In this document: positions 44,155 through 46,920 of the stretch, piece by piece
Layout: each line of letters opens with the position of its first letter
Position numbering within the stretch: position 1 is the stretch's first letter
DNA from: an uncultured Candidatus Saccharibacteria bacterium
Lineage (GTDB): Bacteria > Patescibacteriota > Minisyncoccia > Minisyncoccales > PWPS01
Assembly: GCA_964507105.1 (NCBI GenBank)
Contig: CAZDOR010000002.1
Location: forward strand, 22,871-82,585
Length of the DNA stretch: 59,715 bases
Reading direction: 5' to 3'
The notes under the pieces: generated by a model
What the model was told of the DNA's origin: nothing
The model's input: the letters and a program-made list of their open reading frames with translations, nothing else
Databases searched by the model: none
Position numbers and translations under genes: made by a program

Positions 44155-45810
44155 TTATCGAAGATCGTTAATTTTGGAAACGGTCGCTTCTCCGACGTAT
44201 CCGGTCCCTTTTTCGAGATTCAAGGGTGTCAATATTTCTTCGGAATATTTTTCTTGGAATCTGATAACTGCTTTTTCAGTCGATTGACCGAAATTACCGG
44301 TTATCTTTCCTTCGGGATAAATTTCCGGTTTCCGGGACAGGAAAGTCTGCAGACAAGTAACCGACCTCTTGTCGGAAACACCCTTGTATAAGGGCATGTC
44401 AATAACGCAATTTTCCCACTCGGAACGATCTTTCTCCTCTCGCCTCTCCCTTATTTCTCTCAGAAGATCCATGAGCTCTTTCAGTTTATTCAATTTTTCT
44501 TCTCTTCTCAGTTCCTCCGGATCTTCGTCAAGCGACTCAATCTCCCACTTGAAATAAAATGATTCCCCATTACCGTTAAAACCTTCCGTTTTTTCCTGAA
44601 TGCTCGGCATGATGGTTATCGATTGATAATTGTTTTCGCGTTCTTCGGTATTGAAAATCCCTTTCCCGTTTTCTATTTCCATATACCCGATTTCAAGTTC
44701 TCCGGTATCAATTTCAAGTAAATAGGGAACTTTCGCTTCTACATCCTCATCCAAACTGAAAATTAATTCCAGATCTCTATTTATACCGGTTATTTTATGC
44801 CAATTACCCGTCCAATTTTTAGTTTTTGATTCAACGGAAAGACTTTTCGCTTCATCGGATACATAATTTATTACCGGATAAATGCGCATTTCCCTTAAAT
44901 TTTCATTCTTGAAGCAGTACCTCTCTCCCAATTCGCAATCATTTACCAGTGAGGCTATCTTGAAATTATTAAACACTTGATGAAAATCTTTTTCATGACC
45001 GATTTCCTCCAATGCATAATTTATACTTTCAATGCCCGTTTTTTGGCTTTTGAGAGACACGGAAAGAATTTCTATACCGTAATGATCAACCAAGTATTGA
45101 GTGAAAATATTAACTACCCCGTAATCTTCCTTTTTCTCATTCCATTCGGTAAGCGAAGTGTTCGGAGCCCGAAGAAAAGTATCTTTTCTTCTTGACAGAA
45201 TCCCGGTATCCGAATTATCATATCCCAGCCACGTGGGCATGAATTCCGCCCTGGCTTCATTGAGCCAGATCTCTTCTCGTACACCCCGCATTCTTTCTTT
45301 TTGATTGAATACCAAACTGTGCATAAATTCGTGCGCCAAAAAGCCGGCAACGTCATCGCGGTCCAAAACATCGGTGTTCAGATAAAGAAGGTTCTTTTCA
45401 TTGGAGCGAGGAATTTGATGTCTTGAATGCTGGTCCCCGGAATTGAAGTAGCCCCCCGCATTTTCGTGCATGGAATGAAAAAGAATCGATATTCTTTCAT
45501 CTTCTTCTACGGGATGAATCGGGGGAGGGCCGAACTCCGAAGTCATCTCTTTTTTAATAGTCGACTCGAACTCTTGATCGAGATGATCGACGACCTTCAA
45601 ATAATCTTCTTTTCCATCCAATTCTTCGATCCAATTTTCTTCGAAATAGAATTTCAGATTATCCGTCTCTTCAACCAAAATTGCACCCAACCGCTCTCTT
45701 CCTTTGAGGTCGAAATTTTCTTCTACGAAAAAATTGCGAGCATCATCGGCAAAAAGAAAGCTCACCGGAAGAAAGAGAAGAAAAAAAGTTGCAAAGATTA
45801 TTTTTTTCAT
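44155..45810 (-). CDS. Secreted HExxH zinc metallopeptidase (M30/M6-like) with a C-terminal peptidoglycan-binding domain
   Basis: Signal peptide; GGYFNS.D, LAHEFMH, WLNEA.AE; LQ.FL...G.FG..T..AV.RFQ...GYVG..T..KIN. Confidence 0.8.
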   Translation of the reverse strand: MKKIIFATFFLLFLPVSFLFADDARNFFVEENFDLKGRERLGAILVEETDNLKFYFEENWIEELDGKEDYLKVVDHLDQEFESTIKKEMTSEFGPPPIHPVEEDERISILFHSMHENAGGYFNSGDQHSRHQIPRSNEKNLLYLNTDVLDRDDVAGFLAHEFMHSLVFNQKERMRGVREEIWLNEARAEFMPTWLGYDNSDTGILSRRKDTFLRAPNTSLTEWNEKKEDYGVVNIFTQYLVDHYGIEILSVSLKSQKTGIESINYALEEIGHEKDFHQVFNNFKIASLVNDCELGERYCFKNENLREMRIYPVINYVSDEAKSLSVESKTKNWTGNWHKITGINRDLELIFSLDEDVEAKVPYLLEIDTGELEIGYMEIENGKGIFNTEERENNYQSITIMPSIQEKTEGFNGNGESFYFKWEIESLDEDPEELRREEKLNKLKELMDLLREIRERREEKDRSEWENCVIDMPLYKGVSDKRSVTCLQTFLSRKPEIYPEGKITGNFGQSTEKAVIRFQEKYSEEILTPLNLEKGTGYVGEATVSKINDLR

Positions 45811-45868
45811 TTAATCGGTTAAAGAAATTATTTACTTCCTGAAATTATAACACAATCGATACAAATTC

Positions 45869-45898
45869 AAAAAGCCGCACCGGAGTGCGACTTTTTTG
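45869..45898 (-). terminator. Intrinsic terminator
   Basis: AGTCGCAC-TCCG-GTGCGGCT followed by a T run. Confidence 0.75.
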
Positions 45899-45899
45899 T

Positions 45900-46097
45900 C
45901 TATAATTCGAATTCTTCAATCTCTTTTTCCAAATCACGAATTTCCTTATTTATATCTTCACCCAAATTCTCTATATCCACTTCCAAATCTTTTGATTTGT
46001 TCTCATCTTTTCTTTCCTTTTCATGAATTTTGAAAGCTGAAAAAACTATAACGGCCAAAACAGCTGAAGAACCGATAACAATTAGAAAAGTGCTCAT
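45900..46097 (-). CDS. Small single-pass membrane protein, 65 aa
   Basis: N-terminal TM and charged coiled tail; own promoter, leader and terminator. Confidence 0.75.
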   Translation of the reverse strand: MSTFLIVIGSSAVLAVIVFSAFKIHEKERKDENKSKDLEVDIENLGEDINKEIRDLEKEIEEFEL

Positions 46098-46103
46098 TTC
46101 TCT

Positions 46104-46166
46104 GGCAACCCCCTATGCGGCTGCAAAATATTACCTTTTTGCGAATCTTTCCTTCGGAGGGCTACC
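46104..46166 (-). ncRNA. Candidate cis-regulatory RNA (three-way-junction leader)
   Basis: P1 GGTAGCCC/GGGTTGCC, P2 TCC-GAA-GGA, P3 GCAAAA/TTTTGC; overlaps the AGGGGG SD. Confidence 0.4.
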
Positions 46167-46180
46167 GATTATCTGTTTTA

Positions 46181-46208
46181 ATTATACTTTTCTGAGCTAA
46201 TTAGTCAA
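46181..46208 (-). promoter_or_regulatory. Putative sigma70 promoter upstream of the structured leader
   Basis: TTGACT-16 bp-TATAAT. Confidence 0.55.
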
Positions 46209-46920
46209 TCCAGTCGAGAACTTGATAATAAGCTATTCCAAAATATTCGTAAAATGCCAAATCGGACTTTCTCAGGTTGAAACCACGAGGTATCAAGCCC
46301 TCCAATCCATAATCATATTCAGCCTTTCTAAAATCAGTGGGGGCGGGAATCGGATTTGCTCCCACCCTCTCAAACTCTCGAACTGCTCTTTCCATATGGT
46401 AGGCGGAAGTAACCAAAAAGAAAGGGGTTTCTCCTATTTTTTCAAAGGTTCTTTCCGCATTCTCTCTGGTGTTTATAGATCGGTCCTCTATTTTTATTTT
46501 TTCGGCCGGAACACCCCTGTCTACGAAGAAGGATCCAATCGCCGTTTCGGACTCCTCCCTCTTTCGTATCGACTCGGTTCCGGAAATTATTACTTCCATA
46601 TCGTCTTTTCTCAAATTAAAAATTCTGAAAACCTCGGATCTTCTTATGGTATCCGCCTTTTTCCCTCCCGACAAAACAACTATCTTATCCGCCTCGTGAA
46701 TTTCTTGCTCAGAAACCGGAAAATAGCCATCTTCCAGGGGGCCGATAACCAAATTGGAACCGGGAAAAGTAGAAAACAAAAAATAAACGGCTATACCCAA
46801 TCCGATTAAAAATTTTCCCCACTCTTTCTTTTTTAGAAAATAAACTAAAACCCCGGTAAAAAGAAATATCAACACCAGAGAACTGGGCAAAAAAATATAC
46901 TTAATTGCTGAAATATCCAT
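46201..46920 (-). CDS. YdcF/ElyC (DUF218) family envelope protein
   Basis: IVVLSGG, R, IISG, E..S.NT.ENA, LVTSAYHM.RA, PAPTDF, YE..G. Confidence 0.92.
   Translation of the reverse strand: MDISAIKYIFLPSSLVLIFLFTGVLVYFLKKKEWGKFLIGLGIAVYFLFSTFPGSNLVIGPLEDGYFPVSEQEIHEADKIVVLSGGKKADTIRRSEVFRIFNLRKDDMEVIISGTESIRKREESETAIGSFFVDRGVPAEKIKIEDRSINTRENAERTFEKIGETPFFLVTSAYHMERAVREFERVGANPIPAPTDFRKAEYDYGLEGLIPRGFNLRKSDLAFYEYFGIAYYQVLDWID

Follow-up and report, generated by a model that had tools for sequence, protein, structure and literature searches.

The locus described here raises the question of what a folded 5′ leader does ahead of a small membrane protein gene in an ultrasmall bacterium. Hardly any natural cis-regulatory RNA has been described from CPR bacteria; a literature search on CPR/Patescibacteria gave only the suggestion that synthetic riboswitches could serve as tools in these organisms (PMC11665869). 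The leader lies in a 59,715-nucleotide stretch of contig CAZDOR010000002.1 (the window), from a genome assembly of 680 kb in 26 contigs that is 100% complete (GCA_964507105.1). A first-pass annotation of the window had drawn the leader as a three-way junction sequestering a Shine–Dalgarno (SD) sequence, and had proposed a variant or novel translational riboswitch or an RNA thermometer. As set out below, a conserved, structured leader over the region upstream of the start codon is indeed present, while neither the riboswitch nor the thermometer is borne out. The leader is one of few comparatively supported cases in CPR, and offers a concrete instance of probable post-transcriptional control in an ultrasmall bacterium, outside Rfam and in front of a genus-wide envelope micro-protein.

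A small membrane protein gene with its own promoter and terminator

The leader is encoded on the minus strand, downstream of a gene for a DUF218 protein of 239 aa (46201–46920, minus strand; Pfam E = 2.5e-21) and upstream of a 65-aa ORF (45900..46097, minus strand) that encodes an N-terminal TM helix, then a basic stretch and finally an acidic helix with EIEEFEL at its end. The promoter was correctly recognized in the first-pass annotation: a −35 box TTGACT (46203..46208, minus strand) and a −10 box TATAAT (46181..46186, minus strand), separated by a spacer of 16 nt, together match 11 of 12 consensus positions. The arrangement is kept in 12 of 13 ortholog leaders as TTGACT-16/17-TATAAT or TATACT, with the −35 box overlapping the DUF218 stop codon. 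The DUF218 gene ends in TTT GAC TAA, so that the last two codons of this neighbour, plus its stop codon, supply the small gene with its −35 box (46201–46208, minus strand), an overlap that recurs in 12 of the 13 orthologs.

Judging by where the −10 box lies, transcription probably starts at about 46173–46175, giving a leader of approximately 78 nt in the window genome. An intrinsic terminator with a 12-bp stem, a UCCG loop and a U-tract follows the ORF (45869..45896, minus strand), and a hairpin with a T-run was present after the small-gene stop codon in all ortholog sequences examined for it. The next gene downstream, PG_binding_1 (44155–45810), has its own TATAAT-like box right behind the terminator, so the small gene looks monocistronic from its sequence context. 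The box in question is an extended −10-like element, TGTGTTATAAT, serving the PG-binding/HExxH gene (45830–45868, minus strand); orthologs have TATACT or TATAAT at this place.

Predicted fold of the leader

The minimum free energy (MFE) fold of the window leader has a predicted energy of −21.2 kcal/mol (RNAfold), only modestly better than dinucleotide-shuffled sequences (z = −1.9). Its dominant feature is the closing helix P1. The pairing GGUAGCCC/GGGUUGCC, as originally drawn, has partition-function probabilities of 0.99–1.0 over its outer eight pairs and is formed in approximately 99% of the predicted ensemble. Two further inward pairs (p ~ 0.6) extend P1 to 10 bp, joining 46166–46157 with 46113–46104. 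The 5′ arm, GGUAGCCCUC (46157..46166, minus strand), consists of an outer part that covaries among orthologs and a C-rich, anti-SD-like CCYC core, and the 3′ arm, GGGGGUUGCC (46104..46113, minus strand), combines a G-rich, SD-like tract with the covarying outer partner. As had also been noted, P1 ends 6 nt ahead of the ATG and a GGGGG run lies inside its 3′ arm. The 5′ side of P1 is preceded by a single-stranded, A-rich tail (46167..46174, minus strand) that is unpaired in MFE folds and whose outer limit is the putative transcript boundary; on the 3′ side, an unpaired purine- and A-rich spacer, AGAGAA (46098..46103, minus strand), separates P1 from the ATG and measures 6–13 nt in orthologs.

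Inside P1, the folds and the ortholog comparison place an internal loop with CGAA as its 5′ strand (46153..46156, minus strand) and GCAUA as its 3′ strand (46114..46118, minus strand), the latter being variable and 3–5 nt long in orthologs. The loop is followed by a short helix, P1b, pairing GG (46151..46152, minus strand; within a conserved AAGGA word, the pairing being that of the MFE fold) with CC (46119..46120, minus strand; UCC in most orthologs). The GG:CC pairs are invariant across orthologs and are thus uninformative on pairing. What remains is a variable interior (46121..46150, minus strand) that holds the hairpin GCAAAA (46142–46137)/UUUUGC (46128–46123). This hairpin, the P3 of the first-pass annotation, is predicted to form in the window sequence (p ~ 0.93); it is confined to this genome and not conserved in orthologs. 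The proposed P2 (UCC-GAA-GGA) reaches only about 3% of the ensemble and is displaced in the models by the inward extension of P1 and the GG:CC pairs. The three-way junction as drawn comes out at −17.7 kcal/mol versus −21.2 kcal/mol for the MFE fold, 3.5 kcal/mol worse, and has no conserved counterpart among orthologs. P1 and P3 are thus the parts of the original drawing that are predicted for the window sequence.

Conservation and covariation of the closing helix

We collected 13 distinct ortholog leaders, from seven species representatives, one metagenome contig and five contigs found via protein identity; the set leaves out the contigs carrying homologs P0009, P0014 and P0015. All 13 come from one genus and are not independent. 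In a BLAST-type search of 60 relatives, conservation at the DNA level was confined to the coding part and did not extend to the leader. A P1-type closing helix of 6–10 bp was nevertheless present in every one of the 13 MFE folds, with a 5′ arm of the form X-CCYC and a 3′ arm of the form GRGG-X′, preceded by an A-rich unpaired 5′ tail of about 8–11 nt. The arms span 40–95 nt in pairing, and the helix closes 60–110 nt. Its 3′ end lies 6–13 nt from the ATG in 13 of 13 leaders despite an interior that varies from 28 to 75 nt, is A-rich, shares no common hairpin and is conserved in neither length nor sequence. The close relatives L081 and L082 illustrate this pattern, having an identical P1 and diverged interiors.

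In 12 of the 13 leaders the 5′ strand of the internal loop reads GAA, CAA or AAA(A). A GGA:UCC helix of 2–3 bp lies inside the loop, and 12 of the 13 have an AAGGA-like word close to the 5′ end. The leader that lacks the loop motif, G003, has lost the 5′ motif together with the consensus promoter, and a new 5′ arm, AGAACUC, forms a 7-bp helix onto the equivalent 3′ site. Folding z-scores of the 13 leaders are all negative (−0.5 to −4.4, mean about −1.8), several of them weak (−0.5 to −1.2), and the predicted stability of P1 covers a wide range, from about −8 to −23 kcal/mol.

The outer arms of P1 exist in at least seven distinct complementary versions among the 13 leaders: GGUAG/UUGCC, GCU/AGC, AGAAC/GUUCU, AGU/ACU, CAAU/AUUG, GUAUUA/UAAUAC and AUCUU/AAGAU. 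The core covaries too, for example as CCUUC/GAAGG and CUUCCC/GGGAAG. Because loop lengths differ, the arms are out of register in the MAFFT alignments (A2, A3) and in the covariance-model-fitted alignment (A5), and we therefore relied on a pair table anchored on P1 and on an alignment-free duplex test. The anchored table, which is set on each sequence's own MFE helix and so leans toward pairing, shows exchanges among CG, UA, AU and GC at P1 positions 3–8. The duplex test pairs the first 40 nt past the −10 box with the last 30 nt ahead of the ATG. For the 13 leaders, cognate duplexes averaged −16.4 versus −11.7 kcal/mol for non-cognate ones, a difference that none of 20 000 permutations equalled; for nine clade representatives the values were −16.8 versus −11.2 kcal/mol (permutation p ≈ 2e-5). 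Covariation among homologous leaders, which had been put forward as a test of the annotation, is accordingly present in P1. Even in the mis-registered A5 alignment, the covariation score was 0.344 versus 0.224, above 500 of 500 shuffles and with a peak at slide 0, while 67% of cells were paired, an underestimate of pairing; RNAalifold run on the same alignment, with its arms out of register, predicted zero pairs. The helix goes beyond chance, since it recurs in 13 of 13 orthologs and covaries. We conclude from these comparisons that selection acts on P1 as a helix and not on the interior.

The start region and Shine–Dalgarno usage

P1 covers about −7 to −20 relative to the start codon, leaving the ATG and the preceding 6–13 nt unpaired. 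A conserved, covarying helix thus lies over the ribosome landing region in all 13 leaders, the defining feature of an RBS-occluding leader. In the window genome, the −20..−6 region of this leader falls in the lowest 11% for predicted accessibility among 1129 candidate starts, which is a moderate value.

Whether the occluded site is an SD sequence is a separate matter. GGRGG-like tracts occur in the leaders, and the anti-SD is intact in the 16S rRNA of a congener: the window genome's own 16S rRNA gene (G000:C2:186-1099) is truncated at a contig end and covers model positions 9–902 only, so the 3′ end was read from that congener, where it ends in ..GGAUCACCUCCU with a complete CCUCC (L094:620-672). 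Upstream of 537 long ORFs of the window genome, however, there was no SD signal; G was depleted and A enriched, and SD 4-mers were not enriched (29 at −4..−13 versus 32 further upstream). An A-rich −1..−10 is the typical start context in this genome. Among 631 ORFs of at least 120 aa, each taken from its first ATG, no more than about 15 have GGAGG, with a peak 6–8 nt from the ATG, and these approximately 15 genes may form a special class. The G-tract of the leaders sits 10–15 nt from the ATG, beyond that peak, and ‘SD masking’ is perhaps the wrong description for this reason. That P1 sequesters an SD, as first proposed, is possible but unproven.

Comparison with known RNA classes and regulators

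The first-pass annotation had pointed to short words shared with c-di-GMP-I (GEMM) aptamers. Searches against Rfam 15, one with the gathering threshold and one of 45850–46260 with a limit of E ≤ 10, gave no match to any family on the leader (46098–46175), RF01051 included; the scores in the region came from the terminator and from weak noise of sRNA models. The likeness to GEMM does not go beyond the short words; that riboswitch has two conserved docking hairpins, and the present leader is predicted to be a rod with a variable interior. A covariance model of the leader (R1) has one match in the window genome. Across 150 genomes of the order, R1 gave matches of up to 37 bits and no credible leader outside the genus, its E-values being unreliable because a shortened calibration overstates significance. 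The top matches inspected lie inside coding sequence (L24-like, DUF167-like) or are chance-like, and in no case does a small-gene homolog follow. Among them, false matches of 31–37 bits occur in L24-like (KOW motif) coding sequence in L095 and L099, which belong to other genera.

Two further classes of regulation were considered. Control by CsrA was set aside, as a search of the 100%-complete genome for PF02599 came back empty while control genomes were positive. Leader-peptide attenuation was likewise discarded: upstream ORFs differ in position, frame and sequence across orthologs, and G003 has none. The window leader itself contains a 10-codon upstream ORF with a TTG start and a UGA stop overlapping the main AUG (AUGA; 46098–46126, minus strand). 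The P0008 leader has a similar one of 14 codons with an AUG start. The upstream ORF of the window leader is probably incidental, since it is not conserved in other orthologs.

A probable translational throttle, and the alternatives

The reading we prefer, to which we give about an even chance on comparative sequence evidence, is that the leader represents a 5′ UTR element specific to this genus and conserved in its structure, which occludes −7 to −20 and acts as a translational throttle. In this model, a C-rich tract about 8–11 nt from the inferred 5′ end would pair over a long range with the G-rich tract near the ATG, closing the leader into a rod made up of P1, the internal loop, a GGA:UCC helix of 2–3 bp and the variable interior. 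P1 would thereby block the landing site of the 30S subunit, for SD-like GGRGG and for unstructured A-rich initiation alike. The position of P1 over this region makes a built-in throttle of a strongly transcribed small membrane protein gene its most likely role. The 30S subunit might open P1 after docking on the A-rich single strands at its flanks; alternatively, a trans-factor could open or lock the helix. P1 possibly also stabilises the short monocistronic mRNA.

Stabilisation could instead be the main function, with the 5′ structure, perhaps together with a 30S subunit on the AAGGA word in the manner of a STAB-SD, blocking RNase J or RNase Y and translation left unregulated. RNase J and RNase Y are encoded in the window genome, where RNase E/G was looked for and not found, and a contribution to stability is plausible for this reason. 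The near-consensus promoter, the strong terminator and the AAGGA-like word close to the 5′ end of 12 of 13 leaders point the same way, and in Bacillus 5′ structures and STAB-SD elements do stabilise mRNAs. The unpaired 5′ tail of about 8–11 nt inferred here, however, is longer than those that protect mRNAs in Bacillus. Stability as the sole function is also less likely because a local 5′ hairpin would suffice, yet the 3′ partner strand stays tied to the ATG despite the variable interior. Overall, we regard a role mainly in stability as unlikely.

A more elaborate version of start-site occlusion would make the leader a conditional switch. Here a strong SD-like tract, rare in this genome, would be kept closed by an anti-SD in cis until a small ligand or ion at the internal loop, a protein or an envelope-stress cue released it, and the switch would set the level of the envelope micro-protein. 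We consider this distinctly unlikely; if true, it would represent a new class of riboregulator native to CPR bacteria.

A translational riboswitch in the strict sense would require the rod of P1, internal loop and P1b to act as the aptamer, with the interior a dispensable insertion. The near-constant R/C-A-A loop strand beside the invariant GG:CC, and the placement of P1 over the ribosome landing region, would suit such a device. Within one genus, however, the 3′ loop strand varies in both length and sequence, and neither a junction nor a loop core is conserved. The element occurs in a single copy per genome, without a credible match outside the genus or any in Rfam, and the gene it precedes is neither metabolic nor a transporter gene. 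P1 covaries, but a covarying closing helix alone is insufficient to call a riboswitch. The leader thus probably works without a ligand and lacks a small-molecule aptamer, and we hold the riboswitch to be quite improbable.

A physical sensor, namely an RNA thermometer or a salt- or pH-responsive helix opening the start region under stress, is suggested by the G·U pairs in P1 and the adjoining internal loop; the related records presumably stem from soda-lake sediments, to judge from isolate names, which we counted in its favour. Partition functions computed in silico between 4 and 65 °C nevertheless predict P1 to be too stable to melt, remaining formed up to 55–65 °C in most orthologs (of the 12 leaders that could be evaluated, 8 have a probability of at least 0.8 at 55 °C), and its stability, at about −8 to −23 kcal/mol, is not tuned. 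Such a sensor is very improbable.

It is equally hard to credit a mechanism of the type I toxin or phage MS2 kind, with translation only from nascent or 5′-processed transcripts, timed either by a kinetic trap or by an antisense RNA. In its favour, long-range pairing of a 5′-proximal sequence to the start region closes the UTR, the gene encodes a small single-TM protein and has a promoter and a terminator of its own, and a local CCYC-loop-GGA hairpin could compete against P1. That hairpin, however, reaches approximately 3% probability here and is strong in one ortholog only. A consensus scan of 12 loci found no antisense promoter-like site at this locus, none conserved and none at all in 8 of the 12, and the conserved synteny in an envelope cluster and the strongly conserved acidic tail are unlike typical toxins.

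Relation to known leader structures

The leader is a genus-restricted example of known start-site-occluding leaders. Its closest counterparts are SD-masking UTR helices, such as riboswitch expression platforms, ROSE and fourU elements, in which an upstream C/U-rich tract pairs with a G-rich tract before the start; the G·U pairs and the adjoining internal loop also recall ROSE and fourU-type helices. Unlike the SD helices of riboswitches and thermometers, the leader has no aptamer-like core, closes over a long range (60–110 nt) and has a predicted stability too high for melting at physiological temperature, and unlike the SD-masking class in general, it occurs in a genome that barely uses SD sites.

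The maturation-gene leader of phage MS2 has long-distance 5′ pairing with the ribosome-binding region, and hok and tisB mRNAs have folded 5′ UTRs. As in MS2, the ribosome-binding region is paired to a 5′-proximal complement, with the rest of the UTR enclosed between the two, and as in hok and tisB, which are type I toxin mRNAs, a folded 5′ UTR precedes the gene of a small membrane protein. In contrast to these systems, a kinetic trap, processing or an antisense RNA finds no support here, and the gene is a syntenic member of an envelope cluster.

The Bacillus aprE leader stem-loop and the cryIIIA STAB-SD are 5′ mRNA stabilisers, and resemble the present leader in that the 5′ region is structured and an SD-like word lies close to the 5′ end; the host also resembles Bacillus in its set of RNases, with RNase J and RNase Y present and RNase E not found. 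The leader differs from both stabilisers in that the 3′ partner of its helix is tied to the start codon, and in its putative unpaired 5′ tail of about 8–11 nt.

The small membrane protein family

An alignment-based search of 5.8 billion proteins yielded just 16 members of the small protein family, all of 62–76 aa and all from one Nealsonbacteria-like genus. Homologs were found in six of the eight other species of the genus, and outside it there was one marginal relative. Pfam gave nothing above threshold for the protein; sub-threshold matches to LapA_dom, YxzE and PspB probably reflect its TM-plus-coiled-coil composition. Synteny around the gene is constant, running from a hypothetical protein of approximately 166 aa through DUF218 and the small gene to a PG-binding protein of approximately 550 aa and LPG_synthase_TM. 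The family, in which a TM helix and a basic stretch precede an acidic EIEEFEL helix, is unannotated. Its tail reads ..IEEFEL in 15 of the 16 homologs, the other one (P0013) ending in EIEEFEI, and the EIEEFEL tail is preserved via synonymous codon changes.
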